Source of the DNA: a virus
DNA length: 64,000 nt
Reading direction: 5' to 3' (one strand)
IMG/VR virus record: IMGVR_UViG_3300027970_000006
In this document: positions 2,671 through 58,358 of the stretch, in pieces
Position numbering within the stretch: position 1 is the first letter of the stretch
How the letters are laid out: each line of letters starts with the position of its first letter
Notes under the pieces: generated by a model
Databases searched by the model: none
Told to the model about the DNA's origin: nothing
The model's input: the letters and a program-made list of their open reading frames with translations, nothing else
Position numbers and translations under genes: made by a program

Positions 2671-3537
2671 ATGGCGACAAATGTTTTAGACGCGGTTTTG
2701 GCTCAATATGAAAGTTCAAAACAAAGTGGTTCTTCTTCCACTTCAAAAATGTCACAAGAAGAAAGAATGAAAAAATATTTCGCAGCTCTATTGAAAGAGA
2801 ACGAAAAACAAGGACAAAAACGTGTCCGAATCTTACCAACAACAGACGGATCTTCACCATTCAAAGAAGTGTGGTTCCACGAAGTTTTATTGGACGGAAA
2901 ATGGCAAAAATTCTACGATCCAGGAAAAAATGATAATGAAAGATCGCCTTTGAATGAGGTATATGAAGAACTTATGTCAACAGGTCGTGATTCAGACAAA
3001 GAACTTGCAAAACAATATAAGGCTCGCAAATTCTATATTGTTAAAGTTATTGATCGTGATAACGAACAAGATGGTGTTAAATTTTGGAGATTTAAACACA
3101 ATTACAAACAAGAAGGAATTTTAGATAAAATTATTCCTATTTGGAAAGCTAAAGGTGATGTTACCGATCCTGATAAAGGACGAGACTTAATTCTTGAATT
3201 AACAAAGGCAAAAACGCCAAAAGGAGCGACGTATACGGTTATTCAAACGGTTATGTATGATGACCCTTCATCAATCTCTGATGACACAGATCAAATGTCT
3301 GATTGGGTTGGTAATGAAATGACTTGGGAAGATGTATACTCTAAAAAACCTGTTGAATATTTGGAAGCAATTGCAAGAGGAGAAACTCCACGTTGGGATT
3401 CTGAAAAAGGTGGATATGTTTACTCTAACACCGAAACCGCAGAAGTTTCTATGGGAGGAAAATCAACACCTAAATCAATTAATGAAGTTGCTGACCCACA
3501 AGAAAACGATCAAGTTGATGAAGAATTACCATTCTAA
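2671..3537 (+). CDS. T4 gp32-like single-stranded DNA-binding protein
   Basis: 'VRILP', 'PFKEVWFH', 'DPDKGRDLIL' motifs, acidic tail ending 'DEELPF'; first gene of the replication cluster. Confidence 0.85.
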   Translation: MATNVLDAVLAQYESSKQSGSSSTSKMSQEERMKKYFAALLKENEKQGQKRVRILPTTDGSSPFKEVWFHEVLLDGKWQKFYDPGKNDNERSPLNEVYEELMSTGRDSDKELAKQYKARKFYIVKVIDRDNEQDGVKFWRFKHNYKQEGILDKIIPIWKAKGDVTDPDKGRDLILELTKAKTPKGATYTVIQTVMYDDPSSISDDTDQMSDWVGNEMTWEDVYSKKPVEYLEAIARGETPRWDSEKGGYVYSNTETAEVSMGGKSTPKSINEVADPQENDQVDEELPF

Positions 3538-3567
3538 ATTTAACTAAAAAAACCCTAAGTATTATCT

Positions 3568-3600
3568 AAACACCGATTTACAATGTCGGTGTTTTTTTTT
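3568..3600 (+). terminator. intrinsic terminator
   Basis: AAACACCGA...TCGGTGTTT stem plus long T run. Confidence 0.8.
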
Positions 3601-3623
3601 ATATTATAAATAAATAGAATATT

Positions 3624-4631
3624 ATGGCAATTAAAAAAAATGATTTTAGTTCATTAAAAAAGAAATTTTCCACATCAGCAAAATATAAACCACAAAGATT
3701 TTTTGATTTGGGTCAACCATTTTTGGATGCGGTAGGACTTCCAGGTCCGGCCATGGGACATATTAATATGTTCTTGGGTCACTCAGATACGGGAAAAACA
3801 ACAGCGCTTGTTAAAACTGCGGTTGATGCTCAAAAGAAAGGTATTCTTCCTGTGTTTATCATTACAGAACAAAAATGGAGTTTTGAACACGCCAAACTTA
3901 TGGGTTTTGAATGTGAAGAAGTTGTTGACACCGAAACAGGAGAATTAGAGTGGGATGGTTTTTACATCTTTAATAATAATTTTGATTACATTGAACAAAT
4001 TACAGCTTATATTAATGAATTATTGGATGCTCAAGAAAAGGGTGAATTAGATTACTCACTTTGTATAATGTGGGATTCAGTTGGATCAGTTCCATGTAAA
4101 ATGACTTATGAGGGCCGAGGTGGAAAACAACACAATGCAGCTGCATTAGCCGACAAAATTGGCATGGGTATTAATCAAAGAATTTCAGGGTCTCGTAAAT
4201 CAGATTCTAAATATGAGAATACCCTTATTATCGTAAACCAGCCTTGGGTTGAATTACCTGACAATCCATTTGGTCAACCTAAAATTAAAGCAAAGGGTGG
4301 TGAGGCAATTTGGTTAAACTCATCATTGGTATTCTTATTTGGTAATCAAAAAGGTGCGGGAACAACAAAGATTACCGCAACAAAAGACAAAAGAACGGTA
4401 AAGTTTGCGTCAAGAACAAAAGTATCGGTTATGAAAAATCACATCAATGGGCTTGGTTTTGAAGATGGGAAAATAATTGTAACACCACACGGTTTTTTAC
4501 CTGGTAAGGAATCGTCTGAAGAAAAAGCATCAATAGAACAATACAAGAAAGATTATGCCGAGTATTGGAAAGAAATAATTGGAGTTGATGGTGACTTTGA
4601 TTTGAAGGCGGAGAGAGAAGAATCAGAGTAA
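3624..4631 (+). CDS. uvsX: RecA/UvsX-like recombinase
   Basis: Walker A GHSDTGKTT, Walker B 'IMWDSVGS', 'IIVNQ', 'KGGEA', 'KNHI'. Confidence 0.9.
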   Translation: MAIKKNDFSSLKKKFSTSAKYKPQRFFDLGQPFLDAVGLPGPAMGHINMFLGHSDTGKTTALVKTAVDAQKKGILPVFIITEQKWSFEHAKLMGFECEEVVDTETGELEWDGFYIFNNNFDYIEQITAYINELLDAQEKGELDYSLCIMWDSVGSVPCKMTYEGRGGKQHNAAALADKIGMGINQRISGSRKSDSKYENTLIIVNQPWVELPDNPFGQPKIKAKGGEAIWLNSSLVFLFGNQKGAGTTKITATKDKRTVKFASRTKVSVMKNHINGLGFEDGKIIVTPHGFLPGKESSEEKASIEQYKKDYAEYWKEIIGVDGDFDLKAEREESE

Positions 4632-46375: not shown

Positions 46376-47176
46376 ATGAAAGAAAAAAGCTCAGGTGCGC
46401 ACATAAACCAAGAAGAAATTCAACATTACCTTAAAGACATTAGAAAAATTAAGGTAATGACCGCAGAAAGGGAGAGAGAACTGGCAAAAAAAATGAAGTC
46501 GGAAGATTTACAATTGACAGAAAAACAAAGAATTGAAGAAGAGATTTTGACAGGAAATCTTCGTTTTGTTATCACGGTTGCAAAACAATACCAAAATCAA
46601 GGTTTGGACTTGTCTGACTTAATTGCTGAAGGTAATTTAGGGTTGATGAAAGCAATTAAAAACTTTGATTGGAACAAAGATTTAAGATTTATATCCTATG
46701 CGGTATGGTGGGTAAAACAATCCATAATTCAATCGTTAAATGATAACTCAAGAACTATTAGACTACCGGTTAATGTGGTTCAGGATCTTCATAAAGCGAA
46801 AAAAGAACTTGAAAAGACTGGAAAAAAACTTGAGGATAAGTTTTCCACACTCCCCTCAATGATAGACTTGGATATGAATATAAACGAGGATGGTGATACA
46901 TTGTTGGATATGATTGCAAATAAGGACGCTGAACTACCTGATGCGGTATTTGACACCAAAGATATCTTAAAAGACAAATTATTAAAACTTTTGGATGTTT
47001 TGGACGATAGGGAGAGAGTTATTGTTGCTGATTACTTTGGATTAAGTGGAACACCAAGAACATTGGAAGATATTGGATCGGACTTTGGTTTAACAAAAGA
47101 AAGAGTTAGACAAATTAAAGAGAAGGCTCTTAGAAGACTTCGTAATGATTCTTCTGAATTATTTGATTATCTATAA
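46376..47176 (+). CDS. RpoD/SigA-family RNA polymerase sigma factor (Bacteroidota-like, no region 1.1)
   Basis: 'NLRFVITVAKQY', 'DLIAEGNLGL', 'RFISYAVWWVKQSI', 'SRTIRLP', 'TLEDIG..FGLTKERVRQIKEKAL'. Confidence 0.95.
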   Translation: MKEKSSGAHINQEEIQHYLKDIRKIKVMTAERERELAKKMKSEDLQLTEKQRIEEEILTGNLRFVITVAKQYQNQGLDLSDLIAEGNLGLMKAIKNFDWNKDLRFISYAVWWVKQSIIQSLNDNSRTIRLPVNVVQDLHKAKKELEKTGKKLEDKFSTLPSMIDLDMNINEDGDTLLDMIANKDAELPDAVFDTKDILKDKLLKLLDVLDDRERVIVADYFGLSGTPRTLEDIGSDFGLTKERVRQIKEKALRRLRNDSSELFDYL

Positions 47177-47177
47177 A

Positions 47178-47306
47178 AAGGGTTGAACCGAGATTACCCT
47201 AACAACTCGGCGGAATGAGACACGAGGTTCTCAAGGTGAAAATCCCCAATTCTATCTATACGGTAGAATGAAACTACACTCCCCCATTGGCGCCAGTGGG
47301 GGTTTT
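47178..47306 (+). ncRNA. candidate structured small RNA, copy 1 (H-type pseudoknot, hairpins, terminator)
   Basis: AGGGT/ACCCT and CCGAG/CTCGG interleaved stems; TGAGA/TCTCA; ATTCTATC/GGTAGAAT; shares conserved core with 57215-57347. Confidence 0.65.
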
Positions 47307-47312
47307 ATTTTT
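47281..47312 (+). terminator. intrinsic terminator
   Basis: CCCCCATTG-gcgc-CAGTGGGGG plus TTTTATTTTT. Confidence 0.85.
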
Positions 47313-47398
47313 TATTTTAAAAGACTATTATGTAGTCCTACTAATGACAATTTTAAATTAAGACTTATTTTAATATTTATATAAAAAGAACAAATCAA

Positions 47399-48769
47399 AT
47401 GAATAGTAAATTTTTACCATGGCTGTTATTATTCTGTGCTCTTGGACTATCGGGAACCGCGGCATATTATAGTGTATATGGACTTTCAATTATATTTTCA
47501 GGGGTTTCAATTCCTGTAATTATTATGGGATCTTTTTTAGAAATCTCTAAAATATCAATTGCAACTTATCTTCACGATAGTTGGTCTAAAGTATATGGGG
47601 TGTTAAAGTTATATTTAACAATGGCTCTTTTTACTTTATCAATTTTAACTTCTATTGGTATTTATGGACTTTTGGCCACAGGGTTTCAAAAAAGTATTGC
47701 GGGTCTTGAAATCAACAACAAAAAAATTAAAAACATTGAGGTAAAAAAAGGAAGATTTGAAGAAATTAAAAAAGAATTTCAAAAAGAAAAAAAAGGATTG
47801 GATAAGGACATCACAAGTTTAAGAACAGCCCTTTCAACCAACACAACAACTCAAACCATAGATAGAAGATCGGGACAAGTTGTTACAAGAGCCAATGACG
47901 GAAATAGAAGAGCATTTCAACAACAATTAAGTGTTGCTCAAAAATCAAGAGACACTTTAAGTAAACAAATTGATAATCTAAACGATAGTATTACAAATTT
48001 GGATATTCAGATTTTAGACATATCATCAAAAGAAATTGAATCTGGTGAATTGGGGGCGATTAAATATCTAAGTGAGATTACAGGATGGGATGTTAAAAAA
48101 ACAGCAAACTTTTTTATTTTAACTCTAATATTTGTTTTTGACCCATTGGCAATTGCGTTAGTTATTTCCACAAACATGGCGTTTAAAAACCATAGAAGAA
48201 GAAAAGAAGAAGACGAAGAAATTAAACCCGAATATGAAAAATACCCATTTGAAAACGAAATTGAGATCCCTGAAAGTTATTTAACCTATGTTACCTCACA
48301 TAATACCAAACATGTTGAACCCGAAATTATTGAAAGAATTGTTGAAGTTCCTGTTGAAGTGGATAGAATTGTTGAGGTTCCTGTTGAGGTAATTAAAGAA
48401 GTTGAAAAAATCGTTGAGGTTCCTGTTGAAGTGGATAGAATTGTTGAGGTTCCTGTTGAGGTAATTAAAGAAGTTGAAAAAATCGTTGAGGTTCCTGTGG
48501 ATAGAATGGTTGAGGTGATAAAAGAAATTCCTGTGGATAGAATGGTTGAGGTAATAAAAGAAATTCCTGTGGATAGGATGGTTGAGGTAATAAGAGAAGT
48601 TCCAGTTGAAGTTATCAAAGAGGTTGAAAAGATTGTTGAAGTCCCTGTTAATTATTACATTAAAGATAATGGTGAAATTTTAGATCAAGAGGGAAATATG
48701 ATTGATAAGATCAAACTTGACAAAAAAAATGAAGAATCTAATAGGAGGGTATTATCTTATAAAAAATAA
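47399..48769 (+). CDS. multi-pass membrane protein with coiled coil and VPV/EKIVEV repeat tail
   Basis: Three N-terminal TM segments, coiled coil, fourth TM, repeat region; TATTTATA at 47374. Confidence 0.75.
   Translation: MNSKFLPWLLLFCALGLSGTAAYYSVYGLSIIFSGVSIPVIIMGSFLEISKISIATYLHDSWSKVYGVLKLYLTMALFTLSILTSIGIYGLLATGFQKSIAGLEINNKKIKNIEVKKGRFEEIKKEFQKEKKGLDKDITSLRTALSTNTTTQTIDRRSGQVVTRANDGNRRAFQQQLSVAQKSRDTLSKQIDNLNDSITNLDIQILDISSKEIESGELGAIKYLSEITGWDVKKTANFFILTLIFVFDPLAIALVISTNMAFKNHRRRKEEDEEIKPEYEKYPFENEIEIPESYLTYVTSHNTKHVEPEIIERIVEVPVEVDRIVEVPVEVIKEVEKIVEVPVEVDRIVEVPVEVIKEVEKIVEVPVDRMVEVIKEIPVDRMVEVIKEIPVDRMVEVIREVPVEVIKEVEKIVEVPVNYYIKDNGEILDQEGNMIDKIKLDKKNEESNRRVLSYKK
48336..48648 (+). 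repeat. coding tandem repeats (72-bp x2, 36-bp x3)
   Basis: 48347-48418 duplicated at 48419-48490; then CCTGTGGATAG(A/G)ATGGTTGAGGT units. Confidence 0.85.
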
Positions 48770-56713: not shown

Positions 56714-57199
56714 TTATTTTATATAGATAATAATATTACCTCTAATAATTTTAGTAAAGCTATTTAATTCTAATTGTTCTTTTATTATAACATCACCATC
56801 GTTTTTTAGAATTATTAAAACATTTTCAGGCTTAACATTTAACATTTCAGGATGATTCATAGATGTTGTAATAAACAACTGATATTTACCATTTTTATAC
56901 GTTGGGTTTAAAATAAAATCAAAACGATTTGTATAATCTCTTACAAAAATAGACTCTTTGTTAATATCTTGATCAATTGACTTAGAAACTTTAGAAAATA
57001 TATCTTTAAATTCAATAATTACATCGGAAATAGAATCCACATCAACCCTTGTCGCTGATTTTGAATGTTTATTGACGTTTAGTTGTGAGTGTATTGTTGC
57101 GATGATATTGAATATATCACCATCATAATCCGTGAACGACCCCAACTTGATACGTCTAGATTCAAGAACTATTGATTTTAACACTTTAATCAATTCCAT
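56714..57199 (-). CDS. hypothetical protein with 'LKSIVLES' leader
   Basis: TATTTATA on - strand at 57204-57211. Confidence 0.7.
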   Translation of the reverse strand: MELIKVLKSIVLESRRIKLGSFTDYDGDIFNIIATIHSQLNVNKHSKSATRVDVDSISDVIIEFKDIFSKVSKSIDQDINKESIFVRDYTNRFDFILNPTYKNGKYQLFITTSMNHPEMLNVKPENVLIILKNDGDVIIKEQLELNSFTKIIRGNIIIYIK

Positions 57200-57212
57200 A
57201 ATCTATAAATAT

Positions 57213-57238
57213 AACAAACCCCACCTTTTGAGTGGGGT
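57213..57238 (-). terminator. intrinsic terminator of the small RNA
   Basis: ACCCCAC-tcaaaag-GTGGGGT-TTGTT on the - strand. Confidence 0.7.
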
Positions 57239-57347
57239 AAAGATTATTTCATTCACTGAATTGAGGTAATCAACCTTGTATTTACTTCACTAAATACTTG
57301 TGGTCAGCTTTAAATTGGGAGGGCTGACATTCCCTTTGTGTTAAACA
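57215..57347 (-). ncRNA. candidate structured small RNA, copy 2, with own promoter and terminator
   Basis: GGGA/TCCC and GTCAGC/GCTGAC pseudoknot, GTATTTA/TAAATAC hairpin, shared AAGG-N7-CCYCAATTC..GAATGAAA core; no ORF. Confidence 0.7.
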
Positions 57348-57352
57348 CATTA

Positions 57353-57383
57353 CAAATATAACTATCTTTTTTAATTCCACAAA
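57353..57383 (-). promoter_or_regulatory. Bacteroidota-type promoter TTTG-N19-TATATTTG
   Basis: Both -33 and -7 elements with canonical spacing, directly upstream of the RNA. Confidence 0.7.
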
Positions 57384-57448: not shown

Positions 57449-57613
57449 ATGGCAACAAAAGGAAAACCTTATAAAGAAGATAAAGATAAAAAAGTTAAAT
57501 ACGGAATTAGTATTGACCGATATCTTTTTGATAAAATGAAAGAAGAAAAAGTTAGTGTTTCTAAATTCATACAAAATTTAGTTAAGGAGTATTATGAGAA
57601 AGTATCATGTTAA
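57449..57613 (+). CDS. small ribbon-helix-helix-like DNA-binding protein (54 aa, not in ORF track)
   Basis: 'KVKYGISIDRYLFDKMKEEKVSVSKFIQNLVKEY'; TATTTATA at 57435. Confidence 0.6.
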   Translation: MATKGKPYKEDKDKKVKYGISIDRYLFDKMKEEKVSVSKFIQNLVKEYYEKVSC

Positions 57614-58358
57614 TGAATATTTTTTTGACGATTTAAATGAAAAATCCGCTTATTGGCTTGGATTTTTATATGCTGATGGATACGTCAGAATGAAAGACGG
57701 AAAAAGTGGTGAGATGAAGTTAAAACTAAAAGATACTGATAAAAATCACATCGAAAAGTTTTTATTGGATATTGAAAGTGAAGCTCCGATAAAATGTGGT
57801 ATTGATAATAAAAGTAAATTTTGTTCTGTTTCTGTTAACTCAACTTATATGGTAAAAAAATTATTTACTTTGGGGTGTGTAAATAATAAAACATTTAAAA
57901 TATTACTTCCCGAATTGAATGATGAAATTATGTGTCATTTCATCAGAGGATATTTTGACGGTGACGGAAGTATTAGTAAAATTAAAGGTAAATGGGATAA
58001 AGTGTCAATTGCCGGAAATCAAAATTTTATAGAATCGTTAAAAAAATATTTACTTAAGTTTGATGTATCTAAGATTAATATTTATACTCAAGGTAAAATA
58101 AAAATTCTCTCAATCACTAACATAAGTGATATCATCAAATTCAAAAAAATTATTTATAATAACGATACTATTTCTTTAGAAAGAAAAAAAAATAAATTTG
58201 ACAAAGTCAATGATGATTTTGTGAGTAAAGATGAGTTTTTAAAATTGATTAAGGAAAATAATTTAACTACATTTGGTAAATATGTGAGTTATATTGCATT
58301 TAATAAATTATCAAGGTTTCCAAGAAACCCTGAATCAGAATATAAATTTAAATTTTAA
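57594..58358 (+). CDS. free-standing LAGLIDADG homing endonuclease
   Basis: Two motifs: 'YWLGFLYADG' and 'FIRGYFDGDG'. Confidence 0.9.
   Translation: MRKYHVNEYFFDDLNEKSAYWLGFLYADGYVRMKDGKSGEMKLKLKDTDKNHIEKFLLDIESEAPIKCGIDNKSKFCSVSVNSTYMVKKLFTLGCVNNKTFKILLPELNDEIMCHFIRGYFDGDGSISKIKGKWDKVSIAGNQNFIESLKKYLLKFDVSKINIYTQGKIKILSITNISDIIKFKKIIYNNDTISLERKKNKFDKVNDDFVSKDEFLKLIKENNLTTFGKYVSYIAFNKLSRFPRNPESEYKFKF

Follow-up and report, generated by a model that had tools for sequence, protein, structure and literature searches.

A putative small RNA gene with a conserved double-pseudoknot fold in freshwater phages

Within a viral DNA stretch of 64,000 nucleotides (nt) (IMG/VR record IMGVR_UViG_3300027970_000006, hereafter the window), the minus strand carries at positions 57208-57383 a structured segment that is enclosed by a promoter and a terminator and lies just before a gene for a 161-aa protein (P0001). 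This arrangement raises the question of whether the segment is a leader of that gene or a small RNA (sRNA) gene in its own right. To our knowledge, structured non-coding phage RNAs are few and almost none are known for Bacteroidota phages. The RNA biology of Bacteroidota is unlike that of model bacteria, as they have no Hfq and make little use of Shine-Dalgarno sequences. A sequence-only reading of the window had described the segment as the stand-alone second copy of an RNA fold, preceded by a host-type promoter TTTG-N19-TATATTTG and made up of a pseudoknot, hairpins and a terminator. All of these elements are present at 57208-57383, and the analysis presented here identifies the segment as a real feature with a well-defined structure, neither a dismissible riboswitch look-alike nor evidence for exotic roles.

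The unit consists of an exact Bacteroidota promoter, some 100 nt of RNA free of any open reading frame (ORF) and an intrinsic terminator. The housekeeping promoter consensus of Bacteroidota is TTTG / TAnnTTTG, and an exact match to this sigma-A type pattern occupies positions 57353-57383 of the minus strand, with the -33 TTTG at 57383-57380, a 19-nt spacer and the -7 element TATATTTG at 57360-57353. Taken by itself this motif is not significant and proves little, because the pattern searched, TTTGN{18,20}TANNTTTG, has five exact matches in the 64 kb against 3.45 expected by chance. It is its positional conservation in relatives that carries weight, a consensus promoter being found at the identical position in all 11 distinct relatives or loci of the subtypes called 2 and 3 below. 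If transcription started a few nt past the -7 box, the predicted 5' end of the RNA would lie roughly 10-15 nt before the first pseudoknot. At the other end, a terminator scan identified an intrinsic terminator (57208-57238, minus strand) with an 8-bp stem, ACCCCACU/GGUGGGGU, and a 5-nt loop (57238-57218), followed by a U-rich tail; the scan gave three terminator-like sites in the region versus 0.4 in shuffles. A terminator stands 3' of every family member seen, at the same short distance in every subtype, starting 3-8 nt past the 3' tail of the RNA fold. The absence of a coding frame was likewise borne out, the longest ORF over the RNA region being a 32-codon GTG frame. The locus therefore has at the sequence level what defines a stand-alone sRNA gene: its own promoter, no ORF, an intrinsic terminator and a unit kept independently of the flanking genes.

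The fold of this copy can be followed from 5' to 3' along the minus strand. Near the predicted 5' end of the transcript a small hairpin, P0 (UGUG-UUUAA-CACA, 57337-57349), was read from the sequence, with counterparts in GUGAU/AUCAC of one relative (L008) and GUUGA/UUAAC of type 3 that were likewise found by inspection, with no statistics attached. It is followed by an H-type pseudoknot domain (57303-57334) composed of a 4-bp helix, PK1 (GGGA 57334-57331 with UCCC 57320-57317), and of the helix P2 (GUCAGC 57328-57323 with GCUGAC 57308-57303); the UCCC strand of PK1 sits in the loop of the P2 hairpin, and loop 3 is A-rich (AAUUUAAA). The linker CACAA joins this domain to the hairpin P3 (GUAUUUA/UAAAUAC with loop GUGAAG, 57278-57297), whose YGANG-like loop is common to all subtypes. 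Next come the hairpin P4 (AGGU/ACCU with loop UGAUU, 57264-57276) and the mini-hairpin P5 (AUUC-AGU-GAAU, 57251-57261), the latter flanked by an invariant C-AA on its 5' side and by GAAA on its 3' side. The 3' tail of the RNA reads GAAA-UAAUC, and its (U)AAUC (57242-57246) pairs with GAUU(A) in the loop of P4 (57271-57267) to form a second pseudoknot, PK2. Both P0 and PK2 are additions to the fold as first described.

Support for this structure comes from an alignment of 11 distinct type 2/3 sequences, in which 97.7% of the cells are paired and seven pairs show both-sided changes. Its covariation score was matched by none of 500 shuffles, and controls in which the strands were slid against each other fall to 28-50% paired. 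In the pseudoknot domain 100% of the cells are paired; PK1 exchanges G-C for A-U in 4 of the 11 sequences, and P2 steps from C-G through U-G to U-A. Compensatory changes in P3 occur both within and between subtypes, P4 shows both-sided changes in three of its four pairs among type 2/3 sequences, and the type-1 equivalent of P5 covaries. The loop and tail strands of PK2 co-vary between subtypes (GAUUA/UAAUC, UGGAUA/UAUCCA, CGGAUA/UAUCCG and AGAUAG/CUAUCU), with just 3 bp pairing in L006 and L099. RNAalifold, run independently, recovers P2-P5 and the terminator. Folding energy of single sequences beats that of shuffles by a modest margin only (z about -2); the support for the structure is covariational and not thermodynamic. 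The earlier claim that stems differ in sequence and still pair thus holds for PK1, P2-P4 and PK2 and, in the copies that follow sigma genes, for P5. What the subtypes keep is the fold rather than a sequence. An apparent likeness of parts of P4 to the 3' end of 16S rRNA (the anti-Shine-Dalgarno region) was dropped, as the loop co-varies with the tail in PK2 and the likeness is not kept across subtypes.

The other copy in the window, copy 1, belongs to type 1 and lies on the plus strand at 47178-47313, with the RNA at 47178-47280, the stem of a strong terminator at 47281-47302 and a U-tract to about 47313. It begins 2 nt past the stop codon of a sigma-70-like gene (46376-47176), in whose product regions 1.2, 2 and 4 are present, and it scores 113 bits against the type-1 covariance model (R1). 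In the type-1 alignment (29 sequences, 26 of them distinct), 98.2% of the cells are in standard pairs and eight pairs show both-sided changes; none of 500 column shuffles reached its covariation score, and sliding the 3' partners drops pairing to 35-54%. The helix P3 alternates among UGAGA/UCUCA, GGUG/CACC and UGGGA/UCCC. P5, which is 8 bp long in type 1 and has both-sided changes in four pairs, appears as AAUUCUAUC/GGUAGAAU, AAUCUUAUC/GGUAAGAU, AACUAUAUC/GGUAUAGU and other variants. Because its strands covary among type-1 relatives, CAATTC and GAATG, which had been taken for conserved sequence blocks, are actually the two strands of a hairpin and not a single-stranded motif. PK2 is not established in type 1, where only an invariant GUG/CAC was seen, with no covariation. 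A long-range closing helix of type 1 proposed by RNAalifold (GGUU/AAAC) was rejected, since its pairing is lost in L048 and L052 and it is in competition with PK1. The adjoining sigma protein diverges to 80% identity, yet the type-1 5' domain does not vary, which points to strong purifying selection on this domain.

At least three subtypes can be distinguished: type 1 (the post-sigma copy 1), type 2 (the present copy) and type 3, which combines a type-2 5' domain with a different 3' half, and there are intermediates as well. PK1 reads GGGU/ACCC in type 1, with the fourth pair swapped, GGGA/UCCC in type 2 and AGGA/UCCU in type 3. The intermediates L111, L113 and L118 join a type-2 5' domain to the P3 and PK2 of type 3, the 5' domain of L113, with AGG/CCU, being closer to type 3, and all of them carry the CCU(C/A)AAUU block common to types 1 and 2 (the shared block reads CCUCAAUU in L111 and L113). 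L111 (2690-2860, minus strand) has in addition two diverged pseudoknot modules in tandem within one promoter-terminator unit, AGGA/UCCU with GUCAGA/UCUGAC and then GGGA/UCCC with GUCAGC/GCUGAC; the 5' domain is therefore a duplicable module.

Whether copies 1 and 2 share one origin, as the sequence-only reading held in speaking of the same fold, is answered differently by different kinds of evidence. In favor of it, both copies have the same collinear order of PK1/P2, linker, P3 with a YGANG-type loop, P4, C-AA, P5, GAAA and terminator. They share the motif AAGG-N-CCYCAATTC-N-GAATGAAA, of which the window has two instances and no more, at 47233 (+) and 57277 (-), and 100 shuffles have none; since the pattern was taken from these very copies, the test is in part circular. 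Synteny adds to this, as type 3 takes the type-1 position directly 3' of sigma in L091 and L101. Model scores weigh against it. With R1, copy 2 reaches no more than 15.2 bits (E=0.056) and ranks third in the window, below a spurious match. The same model scores type-2 relatives at 11.8-12.8 bits, mixed with spurious matches in coding regions, and does not detect type 3, and the type 2/3 model (R2) does not detect copy 1 at E<=1. With cross-subtype scores at noise level, the case for a shared fold is made from architecture, motif blocks, synteny and intermediates. On these sequence comparisons a common origin of the two copies is likely, though not proven.

The family extends well beyond the window. 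Relatives were taken from IMG/VR freshwater contigs of up to 296 kb and from ENA/JGI contigs. The motif shared by the two copies, which the sequence-only reading had proposed as a search pattern, was found in 10 IMG/VR contigs, and the invariant type-1 5' domain pattern in 94; the type 2/3 5' domain pattern matched 12 stretches, two of them chance matches in GC-rich DNA, which leaves about 10 contigs, and contigs with P0001 homologues supplied additional type 2/3 cases. The description as a multi-copy family of phage non-coding RNAs is upheld by these counts. Out of 369 loci found with the sigma protein, the best 80 were retained; 54 of these best 80 have a type-1 RNA 3' of sigma, mostly directly after the stop codon and otherwise at distances of up to about 1 kb. 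Not every phage of this group has the RNA, because among four near-complete relatives (272-296 kb) R1 and R2 found a type-1 copy in G001 alone and no detectable copy in G002-G004 (274-296 kb); a loose pattern search on the same four gave noise only. Megablast of 13 kb against the deposited phages of INPHARED produced no match. In a search of 185,579 prokaryote genomes, no match was obtained with the type 2/3 5' domain pattern and a single one with the type-1 pattern, in a 5.7-kb contig (L120, JBILIY010000085.1) binned into a lake Crocinitomicaceae metagenome-assembled genome (MAG). This contig is probably a phage fragment, and it offers a weak hint to the host lineage; R2 matches in the same MAG do not retain the helices. 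Judged from these searches, the RNA family appears phage-specific and restricted to one group of large freshwater Bacteroidota-type phages.

Comparison with known RNA families gave no assignment. Rfam 15 had no match at the gathering threshold anywhere in the window. At E<=10 both copies returned only noise (AfaR, 16.5 bits; the L10 leader, 20.2 bits and driven by the terminator; CRISPR-DR18, 15.8 bits), and no family was found at E<=1 on L012 or at E<=10 on the 61-nt core of copy 1. ARAGORN detected no transfer RNA (tRNA) or transfer-messenger RNA in the window or in L012, L036, L086 and L091. The family, having no Rfam match, is new, and it is of a known general kind, that of phage small RNAs.

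Regarding its mode of action, the contexts of type 1 are the most informative about whether the RNA works in cis or in trans. Of 65 distinct type-1 contexts, 30 are followed by a gene in convergent orientation whose stop codon directly adjoins the terminator, mostly at -5 to +47 nt, which leaves no gene that could be regulated in cis there. A full-consensus promoter ends 11-23 nt before the initial G of GGGU in 10 of the 65, copy-1-type RNAs of other phages having their own promoter, and where an ORF precedes type 1, it is either sigma or a 140-150-aa ORF. Other observations pull the other way. Type 2/3 RNAs are always followed by a co-directional gene of the P0001 family, 16-20 nt past the terminator, which fits a leader or a partner RNA, and the subtypes do not have the same loop sequences, although a common protein or ligand site would lead one to expect this. 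With both sides considered, we read the unit with moderate confidence as a stand-alone, trans-acting structured sRNA. Within this reading, protein binding as the mode of action is given a little less than an even chance; it is suggested by an RNA that is almost fully structured, modular (as the duplication in L111 indicates) and poor in conserved single strand.

According to the scheme that we propose, host RNA polymerase would make a discrete RNA of about 135-145 nt early in infection, the timing being predicted from the promoter type. The terminator would release this RNA and at the same time insulate the downstream, late-type gene from the early promoter. The RNA would then act in trans as a compact protein-binding RNA, be it a decoy, a sponge or a component of a ribonucleoprotein, in host take-over or counter-defence, and copy 1 would be an RNA of this kind too, supplied as the 3' end of the mRNA for the sigma factor. 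A bolder version, which we regard as rather unlikely, would make the family a novel kind of phage RNA for counter-defence or host take-over, acting early as a double-pseudoknotted decoy to sequester a host protein. Its target could be a component of an RNA-guided or RNA-dependent defence or, given the near-constant linkage to the phage sigma gene, the host sigma-A holoenzyme. If this were true, the pseudoknot modules would have diversified in an arms race, and this would explain subtypes 1-3 as well as the mosaics and the tandem duplication. The overall profile would be in keeping with an early role of importance, for example in host take-over or anti-defence. Purifying selection, a double-pseudoknot fold, paralogous subtypes and the strongest kind of host promoter make the RNA a good experimental candidate and a ready target for structure determination and partner pull-down.

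The alternative that survives best, unlikely as it is, is a cis-acting leader or attenuator, in which a ligand- or protein-bound fold would control terminator read-through into the 161-aa gene (type 2/3) or into membrane-protein and amidase genes (type 1). The order of promoter, structured RNA, terminator and ORF, with its 16-20 nt between terminator and ATG, is strictly kept in type 2/3, and in L091 and L101 the RNA module heads an operon of a 163-aa gene, a membrane protein and an amidase. The 5' domain also has the topology of the H-type pseudoknot riboswitches (preQ1-I, SAM-II/V, fluoride and guanidine-III), with a short stem 1 whose partner is supplied by the hairpin loop, an A-rich loop 3 and a terminator. 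However, no riboswitch or leader of Rfam matches even at E<=10, the loops and junctions vary between subtypes, unlike ligand pockets, and the phage RNA has three more helices, a second pseudoknot and often a convergent gene. A position in the 5' untranslated region (UTR) of a co-directional gene is true for type 2/3 and fails for type 1. No conserved antiterminator pairing with the 5' arm of the terminator was seen when the alignments of 29 type-1 and 11 type 2/3 sequences and their RNAalifold structures were inspected. Furthermore, the genes downstream of both copies need no read-through, because each has its own start-proximal TATTTATA motif, located at 57204-57211 (minus strand), 4 nt before the ATG of the 161-aa ORF and with its spacing conserved in type 2/3 relatives, and 17 nt upstream of the start of the gene after copy 1. 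This motif and the convergent contexts agree with the earlier view that the RNA is not merely a UTR of the gene that starts at 57199. As this case shows, a promoter, an RNA and a terminator placed before a gene may look like a riboswitch and yet not form one. The HK022 put RNAs and the EAR and LoaP leaders are alike in having two copies per genome and a structured RNA between a host-type promoter and a terminator, but a put-like action would push transcription antisense into the convergent gene in those 30 contexts; HK022 put consists of two stem-loops, an architecture unlike that of the phage RNA.

In a further, unlikely reading the RNA would be a regulatory sRNA that base-pairs with host or phage mRNAs through a conserved single-stranded segment, for instance the CCUCAA between P4 and P5. 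The stand-alone promoter-terminator unit is that of classical sRNAs, and CC(U/C)CAA is the most conserved unpaired segment across subtypes. Likeness to the classical stand-alone sRNA genes of phages and bacteria, including those derived from 3' UTRs, extends to the host-type promoter, the intrinsic terminator, the predicted length of about 135-145 nt and the lack of an ORF, and copy 1 resembles 3'UTR-derived sRNAs also in its place at the 3' end of an mRNA. Classical sRNAs differ, however, from a phage RNA that is unusually compact, with two pseudoknots, little free single strand and no Rfam family. Nearly the whole RNA is tied up in helices and pseudoknots, and no conserved complementarity to a target was found, a match of 7 nt with the beginning of the window's 161-aa ORF being lost in relatives.

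An improbable alternative to the trans-acting sRNA makes the RNA the partner of the 161-aa protein, either as a pair of the type III toxin-antitoxin kind or as another RNA-protein complex. The ORF of P0001 (56714-57199, minus strand) always stands downstream of type 2/3 RNAs and is not part of the RNA; in the window it starts 16 nt past the U-rich tail of the terminator and is followed by a 53-aa membrane ORF. Type III systems (ToxIN, CptIN, TenpIN) have a like order of promoter, pseudoknot RNA, terminator and a gene of about 160 aa, as is generally known for ToxIN-type loci. The type 2/3 RNA and P0001 co-occur in every context seen and have moved together between two genome positions, one beside DnaJ and LAGLIDADG genes, as in the window, and the other directly after sigma, as in L091, L101 and L058. 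The tandem duplication of the pseudoknot module in L111 would fit such a partner as well, and many of the weak fold matches of P0001 are RelE/ParE/BrnT/RegB-like small RNases. On the other hand, TRF finds no tandem direct repeats at either locus and the L111 modules are diverged, not identical, whereas antitoxin RNAs of type III systems come as tandem identical repeats; the gene has its own start motif, and type 1 occurs without any P0001 gene. A word-index search of IMG/VR gave 23 relatives of P0001, all on the same kind of contigs. The protein has no Pfam or PHROG family, ToxN and AbiQ included, and no ToxN-like signature, and its AlphaFold (AF2) model (pLDDT 73.5) has no significant structural neighbour (Foldseek E>=0.047; VIA-align Z<=4.3, rated noise level). 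The type III reading fails on the repeats and has no support from the protein; gene order is what still speaks for it. The roles that the sequence-only reading had offered, namely antitoxin mimic, sponge or ribozyme, are speculative and find no support in the repeats or in the Pfam searches of the neighbouring protein; a phage-encoded copy of a type III antitoxin RNA acting as a mimic is conceivable.

The features of P0001 suggest a late, packaged protein as a better fit than a toxin. The stretch formed by its first ~18 residues (MELIKVLKSIVLE...) is found again on a 179-aa protein of L012 (3705-4244) that is unrelated in the rest of its length, hhalign matching residues 1-18 only, and a similar leader was recognised by eye, with no profile similarity, on a convergent 139-aa protein (L086 3946-4365, minus strand). 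This leader type among unrelated small proteins can be written M-x-L-L-x-V-L-K-x-I-V-L-E, and it is reminiscent of the leaders that direct T4 internal proteins to the capsid; it may serve as a tag for capsid targeting or be cleaved off by a protease. Together with the TATTTATA motif, the shared leader suggests a late or virion protein and thus argues against a toxin partner. The motif itself is probably a phage-specific (perhaps late) promoter -10 element or a translation-initiation signal, as it occurs 23 times in the window and in 10 cases precedes an ORF start by 4-18 nt, against a rough estimate of about 0.3 at random. As a -10 element it would give mRNAs with no leader or a very short one; were its TATTTA read as a -10-like hexamer, the mRNA of the 161-aa protein would be leaderless. 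Sites of the motif include 1648, 9713, 21482, 41940, 47374, 57435, 59225 and 63117 on the plus strand and 57211 on the minus strand.

The two remaining alternatives to a trans-acting sRNA are weaker. A catalytic RNA, such as a new self-cleaving ribozyme, or a DNA-level element, such as a folded recombination site, is very improbable: compact double-pseudoknot folds are typical of small ribozymes, as is generally known, but there is no match to any Rfam ribozyme and subtypes have few invariant unpaired nucleotides in common, while G-U pairs in the stems, the strand-specific promoter and terminator and the pseudoknots point to RNA and not to DNA. Least credible of all is a CRISPR-repeat mimic, in which the P4-P5-GAAAC part would imitate a host repeat with a ...UGAAAC 3' handle. 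Viral solitary repeat units act as RNA anti-CRISPRs and sit directly behind promoters (PMC10651486), and the present RNA is likewise a small phage RNA close to a promoter. The only Rfam match centred on the RNA core is a full-length one between copy 1 and CRISPR-DR18 (47235-47274, sharing CAAUUC...GAxUGAAAC). This weak likeness of the 3' third to a repeat ending in UGAAAC is not significant (15.8 bits, where the gathering score is 50, and E values of 0.6-2.6 in very small searches). Among phages, P5 changes in a compensated manner and does not follow a fixed repeat; the RNA has three times the length of a repeat, and mimicry explains one third of the RNA only. CRISPR-DR18 (RF01331) has no match in 151 genomes of the MAG's order, the candidate host order, a result made uninformative by control genomes that are equally silent.

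Some further observations concern the surroundings of the two copies. Diverging from the RNA promoter, a 54-aa ORF (57449-57613, plus strand), ribbon-helix-helix-like by eye and with no Pfam or PHROG match, overlaps the start of a free-standing LAGLIDADG homing-endonuclease gene (57594-58358, plus strand), a position taken in some relatives by a D12-class methyltransferase. This arrangement may explain the mobility of the module formed by the RNA and the 161-aa gene. On the side of copy 1, the gene for a 456-aa membrane protein located 3' of it contains in-frame tandem repeats of 72, 36 and 30 nt at window positions 48330-48603, with up to 96% matches. Between sigma and the next gene, L012 (3300-3700; also L036 3300-3410 and L049) has two more ORF-poor units, each with a TTTG-N19-TAnnTTTG promoter and a start of the form ...ACAAAC(A/G)ACG..., the second ending in a terminator, TATTTATA and an ATG; with no Rfam or tRNA match, such units are candidate additional small-RNA families. 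Finally, many relatives, namely L040, L061, L077, L079 and L085-L090, have immediately behind sigma (about 3313-3770) an inserted 139-150-aa ORF that starts MGSVIDYIECPNC... and by eye looks like a zinc ribbon (CxxC...CxxC), and the type-1 RNA then either follows this ORF or has a promoter of its own.

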